Origin: Gemmatimonadota bacterium
Lineage (GTDB): Bacteria > Gemmatimonadota > Gemmatimonadetes > Gemmatimonadales > Gemmatimonadaceae
DNA: 64,000 nt
Direction: 5' to 3'
Assembly (NCBI GenBank): GCA_040389905.1
Contig: JAZJZK010000025.1
Location: 1-64,000 of the forward strand
The notes under the pieces are model-generated. The model was not told the DNA's origin. It did no database searches and saw nothing but the letters and a program-made list of their open reading frames with translations. The first letter of the stretch is position 1. The number at the start of each line of letters is the position of its first letter. Below, piece after piece: positions 1 through 60,184 of the stretch. The translations under genes were made by a program, and so were the position numbers.

Positions 1-2
1 AC

Positions 3-641
3 GGCAAGTACCTCGTGGCGATGAACAAGATCACGAAGGACCGCTACCTGCCCACCGGCCCGGAGATGTTCCAGTCGGCACAGCTCTATGATATCTCGGG
101 CGAGAAGATGAAGCTGTTGCTCGATTTCCCGACGATCGGCGAGCCACACTATGCCCAGGCGATCCCCGCAGAGCTCATCAAGGACAAGCAGGTCAAGTTC
201 TTCAAGCTCGCGGATAACACCAATCCCTTCGCGACGAAGGCAGAGAGCGACGGCGGCATCGTGCGCAAAGGCAAGCGCGTGGACGTCAAGATGATCGCCA
301 TTCGCAGCCACTTCGCGCCTGACAATCTCGAAGGCATCACGCTTGGTGACACCGTGTACTTCCACGTCACGAATCTCGAACAGGACTGGGATATCCTGCA
401 CGGCTTCGCGGTGCTCGGCGCGCAGAATTCGGAGCTCGTGCTCAACCCGGGTGAAACGCGCACCATGAAGTGGGTTCCGACGATGACGGGCGTCTTCCCC
501 TTCTACTGCACCGATTTCTGCTCTGCGCTGCACCAGGAAATGCAGGGCTACGTGCGTGTTTCGGCACCAGGATCGAACGTCCCGCTCACGGCCAACATCA
601 GTCCGAAGACCAAGGCGCAGATGGCCAAGGCCGGGCTATGA
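3..641 (+). CDS. nosZ: Nitrous-oxide reductase, clade II type; C-terminal part (5' end outside window)
   Basis: Frame open from the window edge (GKYLVAMNKITKDRYLPTGPE). GEPHYAQ motif and CuA motif FYCTDFCSALHQEM. Followed by nosB/L/D/F/Y. Confidence 0.96.
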   Translation, partial: GKYLVAMNKITKDRYLPTGPEMFQSAQLYDISGEKMKLLLDFPTIGEPHYAQAIPAELIKDKQVKFFKLADNTNPFATKAESDGGIVRKGKRVDVKMIAIRSHFAPDNLEGITLGDTVYFHVTNLEQDWDILHGFAVLGAQNSELVLNPGETRTMKWVPTMTGVFPFYCTDFCSALHQEMQGYVRVSAPGSNVPLTANISPKTKAQMAKAGL

Positions 642-1729
642 CACAGCTCTCCGTTCGGTCGCGAGTCCTGACGGCAGTGGCGGCCCTGCTCATGCTTGCC
701 CCGTTCTTCCTGCCGCTGTGGCGCATCGACCTGAAGGCGCCGCAGTATCCCGAAGGGCTGGGCATGCTGATCCGCGTCAATACGATCACAGGGCTCGCGC
801 CGACGGACCTGAACAACATCAATGGGCTCAATCACTACATCGGGATGAAGGCCATCGAGCCGGAGTCCATCCCGGTGCTCAGGTACATGCCATGGGTGGC
901 CGGCGCGCTGGCCGCCCTCGGATTCGCGACGGCATTGATCGGCCGGCGCAAGGTGCTCATGGCATGGATTGCGGCGTACGCTGTCGCCGGCGCCGCTGGC
1001 CTGGTCGAGTTCTATGTGTGGTCGTACGACTACGGACACAATCTCGCCGCCGACGCTGTCATCAAGGTGCCGGGAATGAGTTACCAGCCGCCGCTGCTTG
1101 GCAGCAAACAACTATTGAACTTCACGGCGTCATCGTGGCCTGCGTCGGGTGGATGGCTGGCAGCCGTCGCGTTCGTGGTCGCGGTGCTGGCGCTGCTGCC
1201 GTTCCGGCGAGCACTTCGGGTCGCGATCTCCCCTGCACCGGCGACGTCACGCGCCATCTTTACGGCGCTCGCCTTCGCCCTGCTGTCGGTTGGATCATGC
1301 CGAAGCGCCGAGCCGACGCCGCTCGCGTATGGCCGCGCCGATTGCGACGTCTGCCGAATGCGCATCGCGGACGAGCGCTACGGCGGTGAGCTGATCACGA
1401 AGACCGGTAAGGTCCGGCAGTTCGACGCCATCGAATGCCTGGCGACGTACGCCGTCACGGCTCCTTCGATCAAGGACACGCGATCCACCTGGGTGAGTGA
1501 CTTCGATCATCCCGGACAGCTGGTGAACGCGAATACCGCGCGGTTCGTCACGCGCGCGGGTCCAGGCAGCCAGATGGGCGCAATTCTCGCCGTCGGGCCA
1601 GGGACCAGCGTTGATTCGCTGGTCGCACGCTTCGGTACGACGCCACTGACATGGGATGAAGTGCTCGCGCGCGCTGAACGCGGAACACTCCGTGATCGCA
1701 CCACACCGGATGGAACGCGTGCCTCGTAA
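638..1729 (+). CDS. nosL: NosB-like membrane protein fused to a NosL copper-chaperone domain
   Basis: ATG 638 overlaps the nosZ stop (ATGA). N-half PLWRIDLKAPQYPEGL...NGLNHYIGM is NosB-like; C-half CDVCRMRI...GKVRQFDAIECL is NosL-like. Confidence 0.88.
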   Translation: MTQLSVRSRVLTAVAALLMLAPFFLPLWRIDLKAPQYPEGLGMLIRVNTITGLAPTDLNNINGLNHYIGMKAIEPESIPVLRYMPWVAGALAALGFATALIGRRKVLMAWIAAYAVAGAAGLVEFYVWSYDYGHNLAADAVIKVPGMSYQPPLLGSKQLLNFTASSWPASGGWLAAVAFVVAVLALLPFRRALRVAISPAPATSRAIFTALAFALLSVGSCRSAEPTPLAYGRADCDVCRMRIADERYGGELITKTGKVRQFDAIECLATYAVTAPSIKDTRSTWVSDFDHPGQLVNANTARFVTRAGPGSQMGAILAVGPGTSVDSLVARFGTTPLTWDEVLARAERGTLRDRTTPDGTRAS

Positions 1730-2978
1730 CACTCGGCGTTATGGCTTCGCCCTCGCGGCGTGGGTGTGCATTCCGCTCGCCGGCGTTGGTGCGCAGAACC
1801 TCGACGAGGTCACGGTGTCCGCCAACGGGCAGGTGCGGACGCTTGGCGCCGCGTTGCGGCTGGTCCGCTCCGGTGGACGGGTCGTCGTCACGGCGGGCAC
1901 CTATCGCGAACAGAGCCTCGTCGCGCAACGTGCCGTGAGCATCGTTGGCGTCGGCAGCCCGACGATCGCCGGCGATGGCGAACATGTCATCCTGACCGTT
2001 ACGGCGGACGACGTGACGGTGCGCGGGTTGCGCTTCACACACGTGAACACCAGCTACACCGAAGACCGCGCCGTCATCCGCGTGCAGGATGCCAAGCGGT
2101 GCGCGTTGCTCGACAATCGCATCGACGATGCCTTCTTCGGCATCTACCTCGCCGGCGTCGTCGGCTGCCGAATCGAGGGCAACGAGCTCGTCGCGACGCA
2201 TTCGCGTGAGACAACGTCTGGCAACGGCATCCATCTCTGGTCGTCGCGCGACGTCGTGATTGCCGGCAACACCGTCCATGGCTTTCGCGACGGCATCTAC
2301 TTCGAGTTCGTTCGCAACACCGAGGTGTCGCGCAATGTGAGCCACGACAACCTGCGCTATGGCTTGCACTTCATGTATTCGGACAATTGCCGCTACATCG
2401 GCAACGTGTTCCGGGCCAACGGATCCGGTGTGGCCGTGATGTACACGCATCACGTACAAATGACCGGGAACCGATTCGAGAACAATTGGGGTCCCGCTGC
2501 CTACGGCCTTCTCCTGAAGGAGATCAGCGACGCGCGTCTCGAGCACAATGTGTTCTCGCGCAACACGACGGGACTCGTCGCCGATGGCGCGAACCGCATC
2601 GTGGCAGACCGCAACGATTTCATCGGCAATGGGTGGGCGATCAAGCTCGATGCCAGTACGGTCGCGGGCGCGATGACGCGCAACAACTTCATCGGGAACA
2701 CCTTCGATCTCTCGACCAACAGTCGCGATCCGTCGACGACGCTGTCCGGCAACTACTGGGACGCATACCGCGGCTACGACTTGAATCGCGATGGCATCGG
2801 CGACGTGCCATTCCGGCCGGTGCGGCTCTTCTCACTGATCGTCGAGCGCCATGAACCGGCGCTCATCCTCCTCCGGAGCGCATTCGTTGGGTTGCTGGAT
2901 GCTGCCGAGCGAGCGCTGCCCGCGCTCACACCGGTGTCCCTCGCCGACGCGCGACCATCCATGCAGAGACTCCAATGA
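1710..2978 (+). CDS. nosD: NosD periplasmic maturation protein (beta-helix)
   Basis: GNGIHLW, RDGIYFEF, LRYGLHFMYS, GNYWDAYRGYDLNRDGIGDVPF motifs. Start uncertain (1710/1719). Confidence 0.93.
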   Translation: MERVPRNTRRYGFALAAWVCIPLAGVGAQNLDEVTVSANGQVRTLGAALRLVRSGGRVVVTAGTYREQSLVAQRAVSIVGVGSPTIAGDGEHVILTVTADDVTVRGLRFTHVNTSYTEDRAVIRVQDAKRCALLDNRIDDAFFGIYLAGVVGCRIEGNELVATHSRETTSGNGIHLWSSRDVVIAGNTVHGFRDGIYFEFVRNTEVSRNVSHDNLRYGLHFMYSDNCRYIGNVFRANGSGVAVMYTHHVQMTGNRFENNWGPAAYGLLLKEISDARLEHNVFSRNTTGLVADGANRIVADRNDFIGNGWAIKLDASTVAGAMTRNNFIGNTFDLSTNSRDPSTTLSGNYWDAYRGYDLNRDGIGDVPFRPVRLFSLIVERHEPALILLRSAFVGLLDAAERALPALTPVSLADARPSMQRLQ

Positions 2979-3685
2979 TCGAAGCCCGTGGTCTGCGCAA
3001 ACGTTTTGGTTCCGTCGAGGTCCTGCGCGGCGTCGATCTGGCAATTACGCGCGGTCGCGTCACGGCCATCGTCGGCCCGAATGGCGCGGGAAAAACCACG
3101 TTCATCAAGTCCGTCCTTGGCCTCACGCGCCCCGACGCAGGTGTCCTCACCTTTGACGGCACACCGATCGGCGATGATCCCGCCTACCGCGCGCGCATTG
3201 GTTACATGCCGCAGATCGCGCGCTTTCCGGAACGCATGACGGGCACGGAACTCCTCGCGCTCCTCAAGGAGCTGCGCGGCGCATTCGAGGTGGATGAGAG
3301 TCTCATCACGCAGTTCGCGCTGGAGCGCGAGCTCTCGAAGCCGTTGGGCAAGCTTTCCGGCGGCACGCGACAGAAAGTCAACGCGCTCGCCGCGTTCATG
3401 TTTTCGCCCGACCTCTACGTGCTGGACGAACCGACGGCCGGCCTCGATCCCGTATCATCGGGGATTCTCAAGACGCGCATCCGTGCCGAGCGGGCGAAGG
3501 GCCGCACGGTGCTCCTGACATCGCACATCATGAGCGAGATCGACGAGTTGGCCGATGACGTCATCTATCTCACCGACGGGCAGGTCACCTTCTCCGGAGC
3601 CATCGGCGATCTCAAGCGGGCCATGGGGCACGTGAACCTCGAGCACGCGATCGCAGCGCTGATGGTGCGGGCGGTGGCCGCATGA
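2975..3685 (+). CDS. nosF: ABC transporter ATPase NosF
   Basis: Walker A GPNGAGKT, LSGG signature, LDEP; lies between nosD and nosY with 4-bp overlaps. Confidence 0.92.
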   Translation: MIEARGLRKRFGSVEVLRGVDLAITRGRVTAIVGPNGAGKTTFIKSVLGLTRPDAGVLTFDGTPIGDDPAYRARIGYMPQIARFPERMTGTELLALLKELRGAFEVDESLITQFALERELSKPLGKLSGGTRQKVNALAAFMFSPDLYVLDEPTAGLDPVSSGILKTRIRAERAKGRTVLLTSHIMSEIDELADDVIYLTDGQVTFSGAIGDLKRAMGHVNLEHAIAALMVRAVAA

Positions 3686-4470
3686 TCATCATGACGATCG
3701 CCCGTGACCAGGCGCGTGACGTGTTGCGGAGCAAGTGGCTCTTCGCCTACGCCTTCTTCTTCCTCGCGGTGACCGAAGGCTTGCTCCGCTTCGCCGGCGG
3801 TGACGCGCGCACGATTCTCAGCCTCTCCACGGTTGTTCTCTTCGTCGTCCCGCTGGTGACGTTGGTCTTTGCAACCGTCTACCTGTACAACGCGCGTGAG
3901 TTCACTGAACTCCTGCTCGCGCAGCCCATCGATCGGCGACGCCTGTTCGTCGGACTCTACTTAGGCCTCTGCCTGCCGCTCGCAGCGGCACTCCTTGCCG
4001 GCGTGTGCGCGCCATTCATCGCACACGGTATGGGCGATCCGTCACAACGCGGCGCCCTCGCGGCCCTGCTTGGAGCCGGCGCGGCGCTCACGCTGATCTT
4101 TACGGCGATCGCCTTCTGCATCGCCACCTGGGCCGACGATCGCCTGAAGGGCCTCGGTGCGGCGATCACGGTGTGGATGCTCTTCGCCATCGTGTATGAT
4201 GGCCTCACAATGGCGATCGTCGCCGCGTTCGCCGACTACCCCCTTGAACGCGCGGTGTTGGTCCTCACGCTCGCCAACCCGATCGATCTCGCGCGCGTGA
4301 CGCTGTTGCTGCAGCTCGATGTGTCCGCGCTCATGGGCTATACGGGCGCGGTGTTCCAGCTCTTCCTCGGTGGCGTGACCGGCACCCTGGTCGCTGGCGT
4401 CGCGCTGCTGTCGTGGATCGTCGTCCCGACCGCGCTCGGCGTGCGGGCGTTTCGGCGAAAGGATTTCTGA
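3682..4470 (+). CDS. nosY: ABC permease NosY
   Basis: Polytopic; ELLLAQP and NPIDLAR motifs; ends FRRKDF. Confidence 0.92.
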   Translation: MIIMTIARDQARDVLRSKWLFAYAFFFLAVTEGLLRFAGGDARTILSLSTVVLFVVPLVTLVFATVYLYNAREFTELLLAQPIDRRRLFVGLYLGLCLPLAAALLAGVCAPFIAHGMGDPSQRGALAALLGAGAALTLIFTAIAFCIATWADDRLKGLGAAITVWMLFAIVYDGLTMAIVAAFADYPLERAVLVLTLANPIDLARVTLLLQLDVSALMGYTGAVFQLFLGGVTGTLVAGVALLSWIVVPTALGVRAFRRKDF

Positions 4471-4506
4471 AGCTTGCTCACAACTACCCATTCAAGGATC
4501 ACAGTC

Positions 4507-4959
4507 ATGAAGACGTTCACTCGATATTCCAGTTTGGCGGCGCTCGTGGTTTCTGCGACGCTACTGACTCAAGGTTGCGGCGGCGGCGAGAAGAAGCCGG
4601 CCGACACACCGTCAGTCTCCAAGGAAGGCGGCGAGGCCAAGGAGCACGAAACCAAGGGGCGCACGATCATCGTCGAGGCGATCACCGACGAGAAGGGTAA
4701 CTATTTCCAGCCGAACGAGATCGAAGCACATGAAGGCGACGTCATTCGGTTCACGCTCAAGATGGGGGTACACAACGTGAACTTCCTTCCGGATTCGAAC
4801 GCGCGAAAGAAGGGGTTGCCTGCGACGCCGAGTGAAATGCTGCAGCTGCCGGGACAGACGTACGATGTGCCCGTGACGTTCGAGGAAGGGCGCTACTATT
4901 TCCAGTGCGACCCGCACGCGCTGCTCGGCATGAAGGGGCACATTACCGTCAAGGATTGA
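4507..4959 (+). CDS. Type-1 blue copper (plastocyanin/azurin family) lipoprotein
   Basis: Lipobox-like LTQGC; copper ligands in HNV...CDPHALLGM. Confidence 0.88.
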   Translation: MKTFTRYSSLAALVVSATLLTQGCGGGEKKPADTPSVSKEGGEAKEHETKGRTIIVEAITDEKGNYFQPNEIEAHEGDVIRFTLKMGVHNVNFLPDSNARKKGLPATPSEMLQLPGQTYDVPVTFEEGRYYFQCDPHALLGMKGHITVKD

Positions 4960-5123
4960 CGGAGCACTGAGTCGAGGGTCGCCGGGTCACCACATCCGCG
5001 CGGAAGCAATCGCTCGGCGGTATACTGAAGGGCTGCCAGTGTCCAACCGCGTCGGTTCGTCCGCCGACAAGGAAGGAGTGCATGGCAATTCTCCGCCCCC
5101 TTCACCGTCGAGCCGCCACCAGC

Positions 5124-6689
5124 GTGAGCGATATCAAGGAAAACGAACGCGCCGAGCTTCACAAGACCATCTGGCGCATCGCAAACGACCTGCGCGGCAG
5201 CGTGGATGGCTGGGACTTCAAGACGTATGTGCTCGGGATGCTCTTCTACCGGTTCATCTCGGAGAACCTGACCGCGTACCTGAACCAGCAGGAACGGAAG
5301 GCGGGACACAAGGGCTTCGACTACGCGAAGCTGAGCGACAAGCAGGCCAAGCGCGGTAGTGACGAGACGGTGAAAGAAAAGGGGTTCTACATCCTGCCGT
5401 CCCACTTATTCGCCAACGTGCGGGCAAAAGCGCGCGGCGATGCGAATCTCAACGAGACGCTGAGCAAGGTCTTCAAGGACATCGAAGCCTCCGCCATCGG
5501 CACCGACAGTGAACACGACTTCAAGGGGCTGTTTGACGACCTCGATGTGAACAGCAGCAAACTCGGCCCCACAGTGCCGAGACGAAACGAGAAGCTCGTC
5601 AAGCTCCTTGACGCAATCGGAGACCTCAACCTCGGCACCTTCTCCGAGAACACGATCGATGCCTTCGGGGACGCGTACGAATTCCTGATGACGATGTACG
5701 CGTCCAGCGCGGGGAAATCAGGCGGAGAGTTCTTTACACCACAGGAAGTGTCCGAGCTGCTAGCCCGCATCACCGTGGTCGGCAAGAAGTCTGTCAACAA
5801 GGTGTACGACCCCGCGTGTGGCTCCGGGTCGCTCCTCCTCAAGTTCGCCAAGGTGCTGGGGCAGGAGAACGTTCGGCAGGGATTCTTCGGCCAGGAGATC
5901 AACCTCACGACGTACAACCTGTGCCGGATCAACATGTTCCTACACGATGTGAACTACGAGAAGTTCGACATCGCGCATGGTGATGTGCTCACCGATCCGG
6001 CGCACTGGGACGACGAGCCGTTCGAGGCCATCGTCTCCAATCCGCCGTATTCCATCAGGTGGGATGGCGATGCCAATCCGCTGCTGATCAACGATCCCCG
6101 GTTTGCGCCGGCCGGCGTGCTCGCGCCAAAGAGCAAGGCCGATCTGGCGTTCACGATGCACATGCTGTCGTGGCTCGCGGTCAACGGTACGGCGGCGATT
6201 GTCGAGTTTCCCGGGGTGCTCTACCGGAGCGGGGCGGAGCAGAAGATCCGTCAGTACCTGATCGACAACAACTACGTCGACACGGTCATCCAGCTTCCGC
6301 CTGACCTCTTCTTCGGGACGACGATCGCCACATGCGTCATCGTGCTGAAGAAATCGAAGCGCGACAACAAGACGCTGTTCATCGATGCCTCGGCGGAGTT
6401 TGTGAGAGGCGGCAACAAGAACAAGCTCAGCGAAGCCAACTGGCAACGCATTCTCGACGCGTTCAGCGCGCGAAAGGACATCGAGTATTTCGCGCGAATC
6501 GTGGAGAATGCGGCCATTGCCGAAAACGGCTACAACCTCTCCGTGTCCTCCTACCTCCAGGCGGAGGACACCCGTGTCGCCACAGACATACGCACGCTCA
6601 ACGCGGAAATCGCGCGCATCGTAGCCCGCCAGCAGGAATTGCGTACCGCGATCGATGCGATTGTCGCTGACCTGGAAGGAGTGGCGTGA
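5124..6689 (+). CDS. hsdM: Type I RM methyltransferase subunit M
   Basis: IWRIANDLRG, GEFFTPQEVS, DPACGSGS, NPPY. Start GTG 5124 or ATG 5082. Confidence 0.96.
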   Translation: MSDIKENERAELHKTIWRIANDLRGSVDGWDFKTYVLGMLFYRFISENLTAYLNQQERKAGHKGFDYAKLSDKQAKRGSDETVKEKGFYILPSHLFANVRAKARGDANLNETLSKVFKDIEASAIGTDSEHDFKGLFDDLDVNSSKLGPTVPRRNEKLVKLLDAIGDLNLGTFSENTIDAFGDAYEFLMTMYASSAGKSGGEFFTPQEVSELLARITVVGKKSVNKVYDPACGSGSLLLKFAKVLGQENVRQGFFGQEINLTTYNLCRINMFLHDVNYEKFDIAHGDVLTDPAHWDDEPFEAIVSNPPYSIRWDGDANPLLINDPRFAPAGVLAPKSKADLAFTMHMLSWLAVNGTAAIVEFPGVLYRSGAEQKIRQYLIDNNYVDTVIQLPPDLFFGTTIATCVIVLKKSKRDNKTLFIDASAEFVRGGNKNKLSEANWQRILDAFSARKDIEYFARIVENAAIAENGYNLSVSSYLQAEDTRVATDIRTLNAEIARIVARQQELRTAIDAIVADLEGVA

Positions 6690-7693
6690 CAGGGGCAGCC
6701 GGCGAGATCGTCCTCTACCGCGGAAACGATGGTGCGCCGGCCATCGAGGTGCGGTTGGAGGGCGATACAGTCTGGCTCTCGCTCAATCAGCTCGCGGCCA
6801 TGCTGGGTCGGGACAAGTCGACCATATCCCGGCACATCGCCAACGTGTTCGCGGAAGGCGAATTGAAGCGGGCGGCAGTTGTTGCAGAATTTGCAACAAC
6901 TGCCGCTGACGGGAAGACATACATGGTAGAGCACTTTAGCCTGGATGTGATCATCTCTGTCGGCTACCGCGTCAAGTCGTTGCAGGGTACGCAGTTCCGC
7001 ATCTGGGCCACTGAACGGCTCCGGGAATATCTGGTCAAGGGCTTCGCGATGGACGATGCCCGCCTGAAGAACCTCGGCGGCGGCCGCTACTGGAAGGAAC
7101 TGCTCGATCGCATTCGCGACATACGGAGCAGCGAGAAGGTGCTCTACCGGCAGGTGCTCGACCTGTATGCCACCAGCGTGGACTACGACCCGCGCAACGA
7201 GGAGAGCTCCATCTTCTTCAAGGTCGTGCAGAACAAGCTGCACTTCGCCGCGCATGGGCATACTGCGGCCGAGGTCATCTCTGCGCGCGCGGATGCCGGC
7301 AAACCGTTCATGGGGCTGCTGTCATTCAGCGGAAGCCACCCGACGAAGTCCGAAGCGGCCGTCGCGAAGAACTACCTTGACGCCAGCGAGCTCAGACGGC
7401 TGAACGCGCTCGTGTCGGCGTATTTCGACGCCGCTGAGTTTCGTGCCGAGAGCCACCAGCCGACGTACATGAAGGATTGGCTGGCGCACCTTGATCGGCT
7501 GATCGTCGCCATGGAAGCGAGGACGCTGGACGGTGCTGGGAGCGTGAGTCATCAGCAAGCCGTCGCGAAGGCCGAGGCGGAATTTGTGAAGTATCGCGCC
7601 CAAATTGCCGCCGAGACATCGGAGGTCGAGGCGGCGTACCTTGAGACCGTGAAGCGTGTGCAACGAAAGATTGAGGGTAAGAAGAAGGGATGA
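6686..7693 (+). CDS. RhuM-family ('virulence RhuM') DNA-binding protein
   Basis: IISVGYRVKS..GTQFRIWAT, RIRDIRSSEK, VQNKLHFAAHGHTAAE, AKNYL motifs. Confidence 0.88.
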   Translation: MTGAAGEIVLYRGNDGAPAIEVRLEGDTVWLSLNQLAAMLGRDKSTISRHIANVFAEGELKRAAVVAEFATTAADGKTYMVEHFSLDVIISVGYRVKSLQGTQFRIWATERLREYLVKGFAMDDARLKNLGGGRYWKELLDRIRDIRSSEKVLYRQVLDLYATSVDYDPRNEESSIFFKVVQNKLHFAAHGHTAAEVISARADAGKPFMGLLSFSGSHPTKSEAAVAKNYLDASELRRLNALVSAYFDAAEFRAESHQPTYMKDWLAHLDRLIVAMEARTLDGAGSVSHQQAVAKAEAEFVKYRAQIAAETSEVEAAYLETVKRVQRKIEGKKKG

Positions 7694-8352
7694 GCAGAAT
7701 CGACGAACTCATGGCTGGACGTTACCCTGCCGGGATGGAGTTGATCAAACTCGGTAAGGTTTTTGAGATGAAAGCCGGCAAGCATATCTCTGCTGGCAAC
7801 ATTTCGGCAATTCAGAATGGTGCCTCTCCGTACCCGTGCTACGGCGGAAACGGTGTTCGCGGGTTCGTAAGCGCGAGCTCTCACGACGGCGCGTTTTTGC
7901 TCATCGGTCGACAGGGCGCTCTTTGTGGGAACATTAAGCGGGTCACTGGGAGATTCTTCGCTACGGAACACGCCGTTGTCGTCAAGCCAAGAGTCGATAT
8001 TGATCTCGACTGGGCGTTTCACATGCTTACCGCAATGAACCTCAACCAGTTCGCAACCAAGTCTGCGCAACCCGGACTTGCAGTCGGCACTCTTGAACTA
8101 GTCACGATTCCACTCCCACCCATCGCGATCCAGCGAGAAATTGGCATTGTGCTAAATGCGCTCATGACGTTGGAGGCAGAGCTCGAGCTGACACTAGAGG
8201 CGGAGTTGGAGACGCGTCGGCGACAGTACAGCTATTACCGAGACGCTCTTCTCGCGTTTGATGAGGATGTAAGCAAGAGCGCAACCACGCATACACGGCA
8301 GGCAGGCAGGCAGGCAGGCGCAAGAATCGTTCCAATGGATGAGCTTGAATGA
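7690..8352 (+). CDS. hsdS: Type I RM specificity subunit, N-terminal half (TRD1 plus helical spacer), truncated by a frameshift at the GGCA tract
   Basis: YPCYGGNG, IGRQGALCG, PLPPIAIQREI, AELETRRRQYSYYRDALLAF; stop shortly after the repeat. Confidence 0.9.
   Translation: MSRIDELMAGRYPAGMELIKLGKVFEMKAGKHISAGNISAIQNGASPYPCYGGNGVRGFVSASSHDGAFLLIGRQGALCGNIKRVTGRFFATEHAVVVKPRVDIDLDWAFHMLTAMNLNQFATKSAQPGLAVGTLELVTIPLPPIAIQREIGIVLNALMTLEAELELTLEAELETRRRQYSYYRDALLAFDEDVSKSATTHTRQAGRQAGARIVPMDELE
8297..8319 (+). repeat. Tetranucleotide simple sequence repeat (GGCA)5GGC inside hsdS
   Basis: Read directly: ac-ggca-ggca-ggca-ggca-ggca-ggc-gcaag. Confidence 0.97.
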
Positions 8353-8926
8353 AGTCGGCACATTCATGCGCGGGCGACGATTCACGAACAAGGACTTTGT
8401 CAAGTCTGGAATCGGTTGCATCCACTATGGTGAGATTTACACCCACTACAAATTGTCTGCATTCGAGACTAAGACTTTCGTGCGCCCCGAACTAGCGGCT
8501 ACGCTTCGCATGGCAAAAAAGGGTGACCTGATTATCGCCGCTACTGGCGAAAACGTCCAGGACGTCTGCAAGGCGGTCGCCTGGCTCGGCGAGGATGATG
8601 TGGCGGTTCACGACGATTGCTACATCTTCAGCCACTCAATGAATCCGAAGTATGTGTCCTACTTCTTCCAGTCGAGCCACTTCAACAAGCAGAAGATCAA
8701 GTATGCTGCCGGCGCTAAGGTGACGCGCGTATCGGCCGACAATCTGGAAAGGATTCGCATGCCGGTTCCTTCACCGGCTCGACAACGGGAGATCGTCTCG
8801 ATTCTCGACCACTTTAACGCGCTCGTGAACGATCTCTCCATCGGCCTCCCCGCCGAGCTCAACGCGCGGCGACAACAGTACGAGTACTACCGCGACCGCC
8901 TGCTGACCTTCCGCGAGGTTGCCTGA
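8339..8926 (+). CDS. hsdS: Type I RM specificity subunit, C-terminal half (TRD2), out of frame with the first half
   Basis: CIHYGEIYT, KGDLIIAATGEN, GLPAELNARRQQYEYYRDRLLTF; frame stays open back to the repeat (AQESFQW-MSLNEVG). Confidence 0.9.
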   Translation: MSLNEVGTFMRGRRFTNKDFVKSGIGCIHYGEIYTHYKLSAFETKTFVRPELAATLRMAKKGDLIIAATGENVQDVCKAVAWLGEDDVAVHDDCYIFSHSMNPKYVSYFFQSSHFNKQKIKYAAGAKVTRVSADNLERIRMPVPSPARQREIVSILDHFNALVNDLSIGLPAELNARRQQYEYYRDRLLTFREVA

Positions 8927-8962
8927 GTTGCGATCCGATTCCCATCCAGCGACGGAACTCTC

Positions 8963-11900
8963 GTGACTCAACTCCCCCCGCGCTACGAGCCCATTGCACT
9001 CTCCGACGAGAGCACTGTCGTCGCCGAGTTCGAGCCGGGGGTTGTGCGTGAAAGCGCCTACGAGAGTGAGGCAGATCTCGAGCGTAAACTGATCGCTCTC
9101 CTCGAACTACAGGCCTACGAGCGCCTCCAGATTGTCAGCGAGGCCGCGCTGGTGGCCAACCTGCGCCGACAGATGGAGACGCTCAACAAGATCACTTTCT
9201 CCGATGCCGAGTGGGACCGATTCTACGCGCAGAAGATTGCCAGCAGCAACGACGGGATCATCGAGAAGACCGCACGGATACAGGAGGACCACATTCAGGT
9301 CCTCGCGCGCGACGACGGTACCGTCAAGAACATCTACCTCATCGACAAGCAGAACGTCCACAACAATGTTCTGCAAGTCATCAATCAGTATGAGGAAGAG
9401 GGAACACGCGCCACCCGATATGACGTAACGGTGTTGGTGAACGGCTTGCCGATGGTTCACGTCGAGCTCAAGCGCCGTGGTGTGGACATCCGCGAAGCAT
9501 TCAACCAGATCGACCGCTACCAGCGGGACAGTTTCTGGGCCGGCTCCGGGCTGTTCGAGTACGTCCAGCTATTCGTGATCAGCAACGGCACGCTCACCAA
9601 GTACTACAGCAACACCGTGCGCGATGGTCACCTCGCCGAGGTGCGTGGACGACGGGGACGCCGGCACACATCCAACAGTTATGCGTTCACATCGTGGTGG
9701 GCCGACGCAAGGAACCGCCCCATCACGGACTTGGCGCACTTCGGCAAGACGTTCTTCGCCCGGCACACGCTGCTGAATCTTCTCACGAAGTATTGCGTGT
9801 TCGACGTGGACCGGAAGCTGCTGGTCATGCGACCGTACCAGATTGCCGCCGCCGAGCGAATCCTTCAGCGCATCGCCACGGCCACGAATCACCGGCAACT
9901 CGGAAGCATCGAAGCTGGCGGCTACATCTGGCACACCACGGGTTCAGGGAAGACGCTCACGAGCTTCAAGACGGCGCAACTCGCACGCGCTCTCCCTGGC
10001 ATCGAAAAGGTGCTGTTCGTGGTGGACCGCAAGGATCTGGACTACCAGACCATGCGAGAGTACGAGCGCTTCGAGAAGGGCGCGGCGAACTCCAACACCT
10101 CGACCGCAGTTCTTCAGAAGCAGTTGGAGGAGCCGGACGCCCGCATCATCATCACGACGATCCAGAAGCTCAGCTTGTTCGTTGCGCGAAACCGCAAGCA
10201 CGCGGTCTACGGTCGCCACGTCGTCGTCATTTTCGACGAATGTCATCGCAGCCAGTTCGGCGACATGCACGTGGAGATCACCCGCGCGTTCGGCCGTTAC
10301 CATCTGTTCGGGTTCACTGGAACGCCGATCTTTGCAGACAATGCCGGGACGACGGGCTCCTCCCAACTGCGTACCACGGAGCAGGCATTCGGCGCTCGGC
10401 TGCACACCTACACCATCGTCGACGCAATCAACGACAAGAACGTGTTGCCGTTCCGCATCGACTACATCAATACGATCAAGGCGGCGCCAAACATTCGGGA
10501 CAAGAAGGTGTCCGCCATCGATACCGAGCGGGCGCTGGTCGCGCCGGAACGCATCGCGCAGGTGGTGGGCTACATCCGCGAGCATTTCGACCAGAAAACG
10601 AAGCGCAGCGCCACCTATAAGCATGACGGCAAGCGGCTGTCCGGCTTCAATTCGCTTTTCGCCACAGCGTCCATCGACTCAGCCAAGCGGTACTACGAAG
10701 AGTTCGGGCGGCAGCAGACCCATGTCCCGGCGGGGCGGCGTCTCACGGTTGGGTTGATCTACAGTTTCGCCGCCAACGAAGCATCCAGCGGCGGATTGCT
10801 CGACGAAGAGGAGTTCGAAGTCGACGGACTGGACCAGAGCTCGCGCGACTTCCTTGATGCCGCGATAAGGGACTACAACGCCCTCTTCGGCACCAGCTTT
10901 GATACGTCCGCGGACAAGTTTCAGAATTACTACAAGGACTTGTCGCTACGGTTGAAAAAGCGCGAGCTCGATTTGGTCATCGTGGTCAACATGTTCCTCA
11001 CGGGTTTCGACGCAACCACGCTCAACACACTGTGGGTCGACAAGAACCTCCGCGCGCACGGATTGATTCAGGCGTTCTCGCGCACCAATCGCATTCTCAA
11101 CTCGGTCAAGACGTACGGCAACATCGTCAGCTTTCGCGATCTCGAGCAAGCAACCAACGATGCGTTGTCGCTGTTCGGCAACAAGGACGCAAAGGGCATC
11201 GTGCTCCTCAAGCCCTATGCGGAGTACTACGCGGAGTACGTGAAACTTGTCGGCGAGCTCGCCGTCTTCCCTCCGGGGCAGACGATTGTTGGCGAACGTG
11301 CGCAGAAGGAGTTCATCAAGTTGTTCGGCGCCATCCTGCGGCTGCGGAACATTCTCACCGCGTTCGACGACTTTGCCGGAAACGAGGTCCTCAGTGCGCG
11401 CGACTTTCAGGACTACCAGAGCACCTACCTCAATCTGTACGCCGACTTTCGCAGCACCGTCGTCGCCGACAGGGAAGCCATCAATGACGATGTTGTCTTC
11501 GAGATCGAGCTGATCAAGCAGGTCGAGGTCAACGTCGACTATATCCTGATGCTCGTGGAGCAGTACCTGCGGGTGAAAGGAACGGGGAAGGACAAGGAAC
11601 TCCGCGCGACCATCGACCGGGCTGTTGCAGCCAGTCCTTCCTTGCGGAACAAGAAGGACCTCATCGAGCAGTTCGTGGATTCTGTTTCCGTCACCGCGAA
11701 GGTGGACGCCGCGTGGCTGGCGTTCATCACCAGGAGAAAGGCCGAAGAGCTGAACCAGATTGTCGCGGACGAGAATTTGGACGCCGCCGCGACGCTCACC
11801 TTTATCGAGAACGCCTTCCGCGACGGGGCAATCCCCACTACCGGCACCGCCATCACCAAGGTGCTGCCTCCGGTATCCAGGTTTTCGGCAGACGACGCCC

Positions 11901-11980
11901 ATTCCATTAAGAAACGGACCGTCCTCGAAAAGTTGAGCGCATTCTTCGAACGGTACTTCGGCCTGTCGACTGGATCTTGA
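8963..11980 (+). CDS. hsdR: Type I RM restriction subunit R
   Basis: YDVTVLVNGLP..VELK nuclease motif, QIDRY, HTTGSGKT, DECH, FTGTP, LTGFD, QAFSRTNR. Confidence 0.96.
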   Translation: MTQLPPRYEPIALSDESTVVAEFEPGVVRESAYESEADLERKLIALLELQAYERLQIVSEAALVANLRRQMETLNKITFSDAEWDRFYAQKIASSNDGIIEKTARIQEDHIQVLARDDGTVKNIYLIDKQNVHNNVLQVINQYEEEGTRATRYDVTVLVNGLPMVHVELKRRGVDIREAFNQIDRYQRDSFWAGSGLFEYVQLFVISNGTLTKYYSNTVRDGHLAEVRGRRGRRHTSNSYAFTSWWADARNRPITDLAHFGKTFFARHTLLNLLTKYCVFDVDRKLLVMRPYQIAAAERILQRIATATNHRQLGSIEAGGYIWHTTGSGKTLTSFKTAQLARALPGIEKVLFVVDRKDLDYQTMREYERFEKGAANSNTSTAVLQKQLEEPDARIIITTIQKLSLFVARNRKHAVYGRHVVVIFDECHRSQFGDMHVEITRAFGRYHLFGFTGTPIFADNAGTTGSSQLRTTEQAFGARLHTYTIVDAINDKNVLPFRIDYINTIKAAPNIRDKKVSAIDTERALVAPERIAQVVGYIREHFDQKTKRSATYKHDGKRLSGFNSLFATASIDSAKRYYEEFGRQQTHVPAGRRLTVGLIYSFAANEASSGGLLDEEEFEVDGLDQSSRDFLDAAIRDYNALFGTSFDTSADKFQNYYKDLSLRLKKRELDLVIVVNMFLTGFDATTLNTLWVDKNLRAHGLIQAFSRTNRILNSVKTYGNIVSFRDLEQATNDALSLFGNKDAKGIVLLKPYAEYYAEYVKLVGELAVFPPGQTIVGERAQKEFIKLFGAILRLRNILTAFDDFAGNEVLSARDFQDYQSTYLNLYADFRSTVVADREAINDDVVFEIELIKQVEVNVDYILMLVEQYLRVKGTGKDKELRATIDRAVAASPSLRNKKDLIEQFVDSVSVTAKVDAAWLAFITRRKAEELNQIVADENLDAAATLTFIENAFRDGAIPTTGTAITKVLPPVSRFSADDAHSIKKRTVLEKLSAFFERYFGLSTGS

Positions 11981-21486: not shown

Positions 21487-21553
21487 TGAACCACAGAGGT
21501 CACAGAGAAACACTCACGTTGTTCTCCGTGTCCTCTGTGTCCTCTGTGGTTCA
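21487..21553. repeat. Palindromic repeat family A (ACC(A/G)CAGAGG tandem-unit inverted repeat)
   Basis: tgaaccacagaggtcacagag...ctccgtgtcctctgtgtcctctgtggttca. Confidence 0.85.
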
Positions 21554-47644: not shown

Positions 47645-47750
47645 GAACCAACAACAAATGAACCACAGAGGACACAGAGGACACGGAGAACACCCATGAG
47701 TGGTCCTCTGTGTCCTCTGTGTCCTCTGTGGTTCATTTGTTGTTTGGTTC
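47645..47750. repeat. Palindromic repeat family A between convergent genes
   Basis: gaaccaacaacaaatgaaccacagaggacacagaggacacgg / cctctgtgtcctctgtgtcctctgtggttcatttgttgtttggttc. Confidence 0.9.
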
Positions 47751-56054: not shown

Positions 56055-56131
56055 ACCGCAGAGGTCGCAGAGGGACGCAGAGGACTGCGCTGTTCACGTA
56101 GTCCTTTGCGTACCTCTGCGACCTTTGCGGT
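56055..56131. repeat. Palindromic repeat family A
   Basis: accgcagaggtcgcagagggacgcagaggact / agtcctttgcgtacctctgcgacctttgcggt. Confidence 0.85.
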
Positions 56132-59989: not shown

Positions 59990-60184
59990 ACCGCGGAGGG
60001 CGCAGAGGAGCAGAGGAACGCAGAGGAAGGCGTGAGAGGTGCAGACCCTCGACTCGCGTCGCTCGCTCGGGGTGACAACGTTGGCGTTGTTCCCCTCGTT
60101 TTGTCGCCCTGAGCTTGAGCGAAGGGCCCGCACCTTCAGCTGTAGTTCCTCTGCGAACCTCTGCGCCTCTGCGCCCTCTGCGGT
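59990..60184. repeat. Composite palindrome: family B half-elements nested inside family A arms
   Basis: A arms at about 59990-60027 and 60147-60184; B units at 60038-60077 and 60102-60134. Confidence 0.82.

Follow-up and report, generated by a model that had tools for sequence, protein, structure and literature searches.

The 64,000-nt stretch of DNA analysed here (the window) carries a type I restriction-modification island whose specificity gene, hsdS, is split by a short tetranucleotide repeat. The explanation that we regard as probable is a horizontally acquired, EcoR124-like (type IC) island, in which slippage of a GGCA repeat likely toggles hsdS, at a low rate, between a half subunit, predicted to dimerise on a palindrome, and a full subunit, predicted to recognise an asymmetric site. 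Overall, the observation reported in a preliminary description of this DNA is real and correctly described, and it most likely represents a slow switch between half and full specificity, of a kind already known. The features of the locus are collected in the table.

Table. Features of the restriction-modification island and its split hsdS (positions in the window)
Feature	Position	Strand	Description
hsdM	5082..6689	+	type I methyltransferase subunit, 535 aa, intact; DPACGSG and NPPY motifs; TIGR00497, 750 bits
RhuM-family gene (PF13310)	6686..7693	+	embedded between hsdM and hsdS
hsdS 5' half	7690..8352	+	TRD1, conserved helix CR1 and tail; 220-aa product at n=5
CR1 coiled-coil helix	8131..8259	+	27 residues between Q.EI and QY; three-TAEL length class
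Linker	8260..8296	+	looks like an eroded GCAA tract (putative erosion)
(GGCA)5.75 simple sequence repeat, (GGCA)5GGC	8297..8319	+	switch element, perfect copies
Two off-frame TGA stops	8340-8342 (ends n=6), 8350-8352 (ends n=5)	+	at most 11 codons from the tract
hsdS 3' half	8339..8926	+	TRD2 and CR2, 195 aa, open without a stop
hsdR	8963..11980	+	1005 aa, EcoR124_C domain; nuclease D-x13-ExK and helicase motifs intact

The island (5082-11980) consists of hsdM, a RhuM-family gene, the split hsdS and hsdR, which are tightly packed on the + strand; a RhuM homologue is present in 10 of the 79 loci compared. Both TIGR00497 and TIGR00348 score above their cut-offs, and HsdR carries the marker of the type IC (EcoR124) family, PF12008 EcoR124_C, at E=1e-64. 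The assignment to type IC is based on the gene set, hsdM-hsdS-hsdR with an EcoR124-like HsdR, and on the helices CR1 and CR2, which are similar to each other, end in QY.YYRD.LL.F and both match PDB 7bst. The GC content of the island is 55-61% (55% in hsdS, 59% in hsdM and hsdR) compared with 63% in its flanks, and none of 400 other genomes of the phylum yielded an HsdM match at E<=1e-150 (0/400), which together point to a recent horizontal gain. The neighbours of the island are a nitrous-oxide-reductase cluster on one side and Ric-like genes on the other. Positions 1-4959 hold the end of a Sec-dependent (clade II type) nosZ, nosD, more nos-like genes and a cupredoxin gene, the Ric-like genes lie beyond 12000, and the island seems to be inserted in a region of nitrogen-oxide genes. 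When an empty site was sought, a NosY query had no match at E<=1e-30 in two genomes of the same genus. Elsewhere in the genome, an hsdS fragment lies beside a partial RhuM homologue (contig C7:98445-99266), and two more type I-like loci are located on contigs C12 and C14; no GGCA-like tract was found in these hsd regions of C7, C12 and C14.

The open reading frames of the table confirm that the two TRD halves lie in different frames around (GGCA)5GGC, as had been proposed, with one Methylase_S domain in each half. The match of both halves in the PDB is to the S chain of EcoR124 in 7bst and runs through their helices; CR1 and CR2 are of equal length (27 residues), four residues longer than in the EcoR124 chain of 7bst. 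The tract was originally placed right after the conserved helix; its position past the helix stands, but it starts 37 nt beyond the end of the YRD.LL.F motif. With 5.75 units, it contains at least three units of a 4-nt repeat within a reading frame, and it lies between two TRDs past the coiled coil, which are the features by which Atack et al. recognise such genes. It is the sole period-4 run above 16 nt, and the longest tetranucleotide run, in the 5.08-Mb genome; a 19-nt piece of it has two matches in the window, a number that 0 of 100 shuffles of the window reached (mean 0.00). Simulation of alleles bore out the proposal that n=4 or n=7 fuses the halves: n=1, 4, 7 and 10 are open (406, 410, 414 and 418 aa, respectively), and the n=4 junction reads identically to that predicted earlier, free of stops. 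The n=5 allele gives 220 aa and n=6 gives 218 aa, and all the alleles that are not open among n=1-11 give 214-228 aa. The ATG of the 3' open reading frame (8339) lies 11 nt ahead of the stop of the first, and a Shine-Dalgarno-like (SD-like) site is absent there. The TRD1 half is 59% identical to the Xylella fastidiosa HsdS P0008, for which the accessible part of the preprint 10.1101/2022.09.01.506293 gives no half-site.

Since repeats are error-prone and the contigs of 7 of the 73 related loci described below end inside the tract, an assembly error that masks a true n=4 was a natural concern. A single contig from a watershed metagenome run (X1) covers 4600-11524 at a depth of 16.7 and agrees with the window throughout, with no differing letter, no gap and an equal tract length; it spans the tract at n=5, and at 23 nt the tract fits within a single 31-letter word of the contig index. 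The chance that the true allele is n=4 is exceedingly small. X1 is the probable source of this DNA and hence no independent sample, and its allele evidence consists of assembled contigs, in which rare variants are lost and gap rows at the repeat are skipped. Among the six X1 records, assembled contigs that drop rare variants, no other allele was seen; sets X2 and X3 gave scattered short matches only and were left out. A search of metagenome contigs with the GGCA-type pattern returned 0 matches, and one with the TRD1 protein returned 59 loci, none of which combined large query coverage with more than 59% identity. Plasmids contained no near-identical copy (18 records, with a coverage of at most 24%), and no near-identical longer protein was found, the best full-length proteins being 64% (TRD1) and 77% (TRD2) identical. 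Tract-length variation was seen in relatives, and a second copy of the window's own gene was not found in these searches. A second X1 contig of similar depth shares pieces of the 3' part of hsdR (11498-11682), indicating a related hsdR in the same sample.

Relatives were collected from 185,579 species genomes with a search pattern that joins the last part of the first helix to a GCAA or GGCA tract. This returned 76 loci, of which three (L026, L042 and L073) were dropped, having no second TRD past the match; the remaining 73 are a floor, since the pattern demands particular codons, and they share ancestry, so that counts drawn from them are not independent. The tract is GCAA-type in 71 and GGCA-type in two, L024 (4.75 units, in frame) and L053 (17.75 units, shifted). 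The comparison of tract lengths that had been suggested as a check revealed a range of 3.5-25.5 units (median 10.25) in all three frames: 34 of the 66 callable loci are in frame, 14 at +1 and 18 at +2 (33 of 65 in frame when L021, which has an N gap in its tract, is left out). A stop inside TRD2 occurs in none of the 32 shifted loci. Four loci, L017, L047, L070 and L081, have 100% identical upstream flanks and 300 nt downstream, and their tracts measure 38, 22, 54 and 38 nt in frames 0, +2, +1 and 0, respectively; L012, L016, L052, L059 and L067 likewise vary in length and frame at 97-100% downstream identity. Identical flanks with different tract lengths and frames show directly that, in this hsdS lineage, change is faster in the tract than in the flanks. 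The claim that slippage toggles between half and full HsdS is therefore supported at the level of the family, in which 73 loci populate all frames and the half subunit retains a complete type IC helix, but no length variant was found at the window's own locus.

The window belongs within this family. Its HsdM nests with those of the GCAA-tract loci L071 and L039 at 100/100 support in a 46-row HsdM tree; the nearest, that of L039, is 88% identical and belongs to an uncultured Gemmatimonas whose tract has 13.75 GCAA units or more. The linker shares its first GCAA-type units with the L039 tract and continues with eroded-looking units and then the GGCA run, so the GGCA tract would likely have descended from the GCAA tract of the family by erosion and re-expansion as GGCA. 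Ten of the 73 tracts are no longer than that of the window (7 of those 10 are in frame), and nine callable relatives with tracts below 6 units comprise seven in frame and two shifted. The Gemmatimonas genome that supplies the closest HsdM also contains L083 (G402 C195), whose TRD past the tract is 56% identical to TRD1 of the window; a TRD1-type domain evidently moves between TRD positions. In ten loci (L013, L022, L028, L045, L060, L061 and L077-L080), the frame that leads up to the tract is open for 376-560 codons, which suggests extended three-TRD HsdS proteins with the tract before the last TRD; a three-TRD kind of hsdS is described for Mannheimia and Fusobacterium in the accessible part of Atack et al. 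(PMC7383803).

Switchable hsdS genes are an established class. According to the accessible part of Atack et al. (FASEB J, PMC7383803), 7.8% of hsdS genes, some of them from environmental organisms, contain a simple sequence repeat, located between the TRDs, and GCAA[n] hsdS genes have 3-16 units in Pseudomonas aeruginosa and 7-29 units in Haemophilus parasuis. As far as that text describes them, these GCAA[n] genes resemble the window in having a tetranucleotide tract past the coiled coil, between the TRDs, with a predicted full/truncated switch, the P. aeruginosa gene being set beside the window by description. The window differs in its GGCA unit, its short tract of 5.75 units and its uncultured watershed host; neither a GGCA or GCAG word in the main text nor a GGCA-type string in 7 text supplements of PMC7383803 was found. 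Judged by its sequence, the window hsdS is a short, derived member of the known GCAA[n] hsdS kind. The half/full specificity switch has already been described and is common in environmental bacteria. The preliminary description had held such a switch to be unusual in an environmental bacterium, a view that finds no support, given the environmental cases of Atack et al. and the record titles of the 73 loci, which are mostly those of environmental MAGs and isolates. The class is thus a widespread, horizontally moving type IC lineage of environmental bacteria (73 loci from one narrow pattern) and no speciality of pathogens, to which the window adds one short, GGCA-type example. No publication joining Gemmatimonadota, restriction-modification and phase variation was found in the literature searched.

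The functional precedent is NgoAV of Neisseria gonorrhoeae, a type IC system in which, in the accessible parts of bioRxiv 10.64898/2026.01.10.698759 and PMC3874165, a tract frameshift leads to an HsdS of ~200 aa that methylates GCA N8 TGC as M2S2. NgoAV resembles the window in that a tract-driven frameshift yields a half-length HsdS. However, as described in these sources, its tract is poly-G (6-15 nt) and its switch is shown by methylome and mutants, whereas the window has a GGCA tract and a switch predicted from sequence; furthermore, the C-terminal part of NgoAV is described as incomplete, whereas TRD2-CR2 of the window is whole. The accessible text of 10.64898/2026.01.10.698759 states that the NgoAV half subunit needs a LEAT ruler, a four-residue helix ruler that sets the spacing. 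The type IC prototypes EcoR124I/II and EcoDXXI share with the window an EcoR124_C domain in HsdR, similar CR1 and CR2, and 7bst as the best or only HsdS-subunit match in the PDB, but they have no simple sequence repeat, and their half subunits are engineered mutants rather than reversible alleles. CR1 of the window falls in the three-TAEL length class but has a degenerate, LEAE-like repeat instead of the perfect 12-bp array of the prototypes.

Type IC half subunits are known to form homodimers on interrupted palindromes that keep the parental adenine interval, which is 8 nt with three TAEL units (PMC3874165, accessible part). Since CR1 is complete and equal to CR2, the n=5 product has the parts that it needs, and the sequence prerequisites for the predicted dimerisation on a palindrome are present. 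In the n=5 state, two 220-aa TRD1-CR1 chains would pair through their helices, and the dimer, together with HsdM and HsdR, would methylate and restrict an interrupted palindrome, presumably of the NNA-N8-TNN type with ~8 nt between the methylated adenines, given the three-TAEL length of the helix. The loss of one unit (n=4) would produce the 410-aa TRD1-TRD2 subunit with a new site, and the gain of one unit (n=6) would again produce a half subunit. From these features, we infer switching and methylation at the window locus itself. No clear depletion of NNA-N6-8-TNN palindromes was seen in the genome among 48 palindromic spacings, and a recent island need not show any.

The rate of such a switch follows from tract length. 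Tetranucleotide tracts of 3-12 units are termed 'mutable' (1e-7 to 1e-5) and those above 10 units hypermutable in the accessible part of PMC4235727 (Table 1), whose ranges derive from AGTC and TAAA tracts rather than GGCA; for three-unit tracts, a rate of 0.5-2e-6 is cited in the accessible part of Atack et al. (PMC7383803). With 5.75 units, the window falls within the 'mutable' range and outside the hypermutable class (above ~10 tetranucleotide units, 1e-5 to 1e-2), so this copy is likely a slow switch; a fast switch is not supported, given this class and the position of the tract near the short end of its family. The likely rate of 1e-7 to 1e-5 per division would make the switch a slow reserve against phages or plasmids that bear the current methylation.

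The family also shares a design at the junction with TRD2, which is the sole point that may surprise specialists. In 65 of 66 tract loci (a set with the window but without the N-gapped L021), each of the two wrong frames runs into a stop no more than 36 nt from the tract; the same holds for 132 of 792 points taken within TRD2 and for 4 of 11 junctions that have no tract. Tract-free controls are few: one search gave 1 junction, another 0 in 401 genomes and others 13 loci, from which L148, which has a GCAA tract, and L153, whose frame is not open, were removed to leave the 11. The synonymous choice behind one of the stops ends in T in 57 of 64 loci where TRD2 begins, compared with 4 of 30 where TRD1 begins and 254 of 948 at other positions in these genes. 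This excess of off-frame stops fits selection for clean half subunits, although common descent could account for some of it. Downstream of the tract, 43 of 67 loci have an SD-like site together with an in-frame start, as do 41 of 603 control windows; one of these loci is L035 of the cultured Halotalea alkalilenta, whose allele is shifted. The window lacks such a site, with duplex energies of 0.2 at ATG 8339 and -3.1 at TTG 8345 versus -7.6 for hsdM and rhuM. No description of this design (double off-frame stops and an SD-like site before TRD2) was found in the accessible literature.

A bolder interpretation would take tract and junction as a purpose-built mobile cassette, in which stops in both off-frames free TRD1 as a clean half and TRD2 is translated separately from a ribosome-binding site or a coupled start, so that frameshifted cells would have up to three specificities (TRD1/TRD1, TRD2/TRD2 and TRD1/TRD2) and the repeat would toggle between a mixed and a single-specificity enzyme in many environmental phyla; we consider this doubtful. 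Should the TRD2 half indeed be produced, such systems would represent naturally occurring mixed-specificity enzymes. The corresponding proposal for the window, that re-initiation at ATG 8339 yields both halves, so that an n=5 cell would contain all three pairings and the tract would alter a mixture rather than act as a two-state switch, is improbable. The closeness of that ATG to the upstream stop speaks for it, as do the SD-like sites of the family and EcoDXXI, whose C-terminal HsdS halves work alone and restore the wild-type site on co-expression (PMC3874165, accessible part). However, the window lacks an SD-like site, its 3' reading frame lacks the N-terminal segment that precedes TRD1, the C-terminal part of NgoAV is inactive according to the accessible part of the same source, and the family motif may have been inherited once and may be partly forced by a Trp codon.

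Two observations on TRD2 weigh against the probable slow switch. Of 93 columns that are conserved across 27 members of the family, TRD2 of the window retains 75, which is below the range of 0.91-1.0 that the members show in a leave-one-out test; the nearest of these members is 62% identical, with full-length relatives at 73-77% identity elsewhere; the departure may reflect plain divergence or relaxed selection. The linkers of its closest relatives, P0121 and P0123, resemble lost tracts. The departure of TRD2 at 18 of the 93 columns, together with the short tract in an eroded-looking linker, the missing SD-like motif and the lack of any variant among the X1 contigs, the metagenome contigs and the 59 TRD1 loci, would suit a near-fixed half-subunit enzyme, in which the tract is the relic of a once-long switch, the TRD1 homodimer works and TRD2 is a silent passenger starting to drift. 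This is unlikely, as the tract is perfect, TRD2-CR2 has neither a stop nor a frameshift across 195 codons, many of its changes are conservative, and tracts below 6 units occur in both states. It is highly improbable that the frameshift simply knocked out HsdS and left the island a recent pseudogene: an inactivated island can keep its reading frames open for some time if it is recent, but HsdM and HsdR retain their catalytic motifs, the same kind of shift with an intact TRD2 is seen in 32 of 66 relatives, and CR1 is complete and of full length, unlike that of the inactive zero-LEAT half subunit of NgoAV as described in the accessible text on that system.

Several minor observations concern other repeats. 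The linkers of 3 of the 11 tract-free controls contain a C-run; these type IC hsdS genes (L147, L150 and L152) stem from a viral collection, and with L148 and its short GCAA tract they represent further candidate switches on phage or prophage contigs. Within the window, 9-nt-period repeats of one family occur at 21520-21548, 47664-47730, 56057-56129 and 59992-60182, in both orientations and sometimes as facing pairs, and are possibly REP-like intergenic elements. Tandem arrays of heptamers, with up to ~9 units and often paired, are scattered in the genome (C23:128245-128461, C66:4418-4524, C7:256726-256844 and C40:5649-5770).
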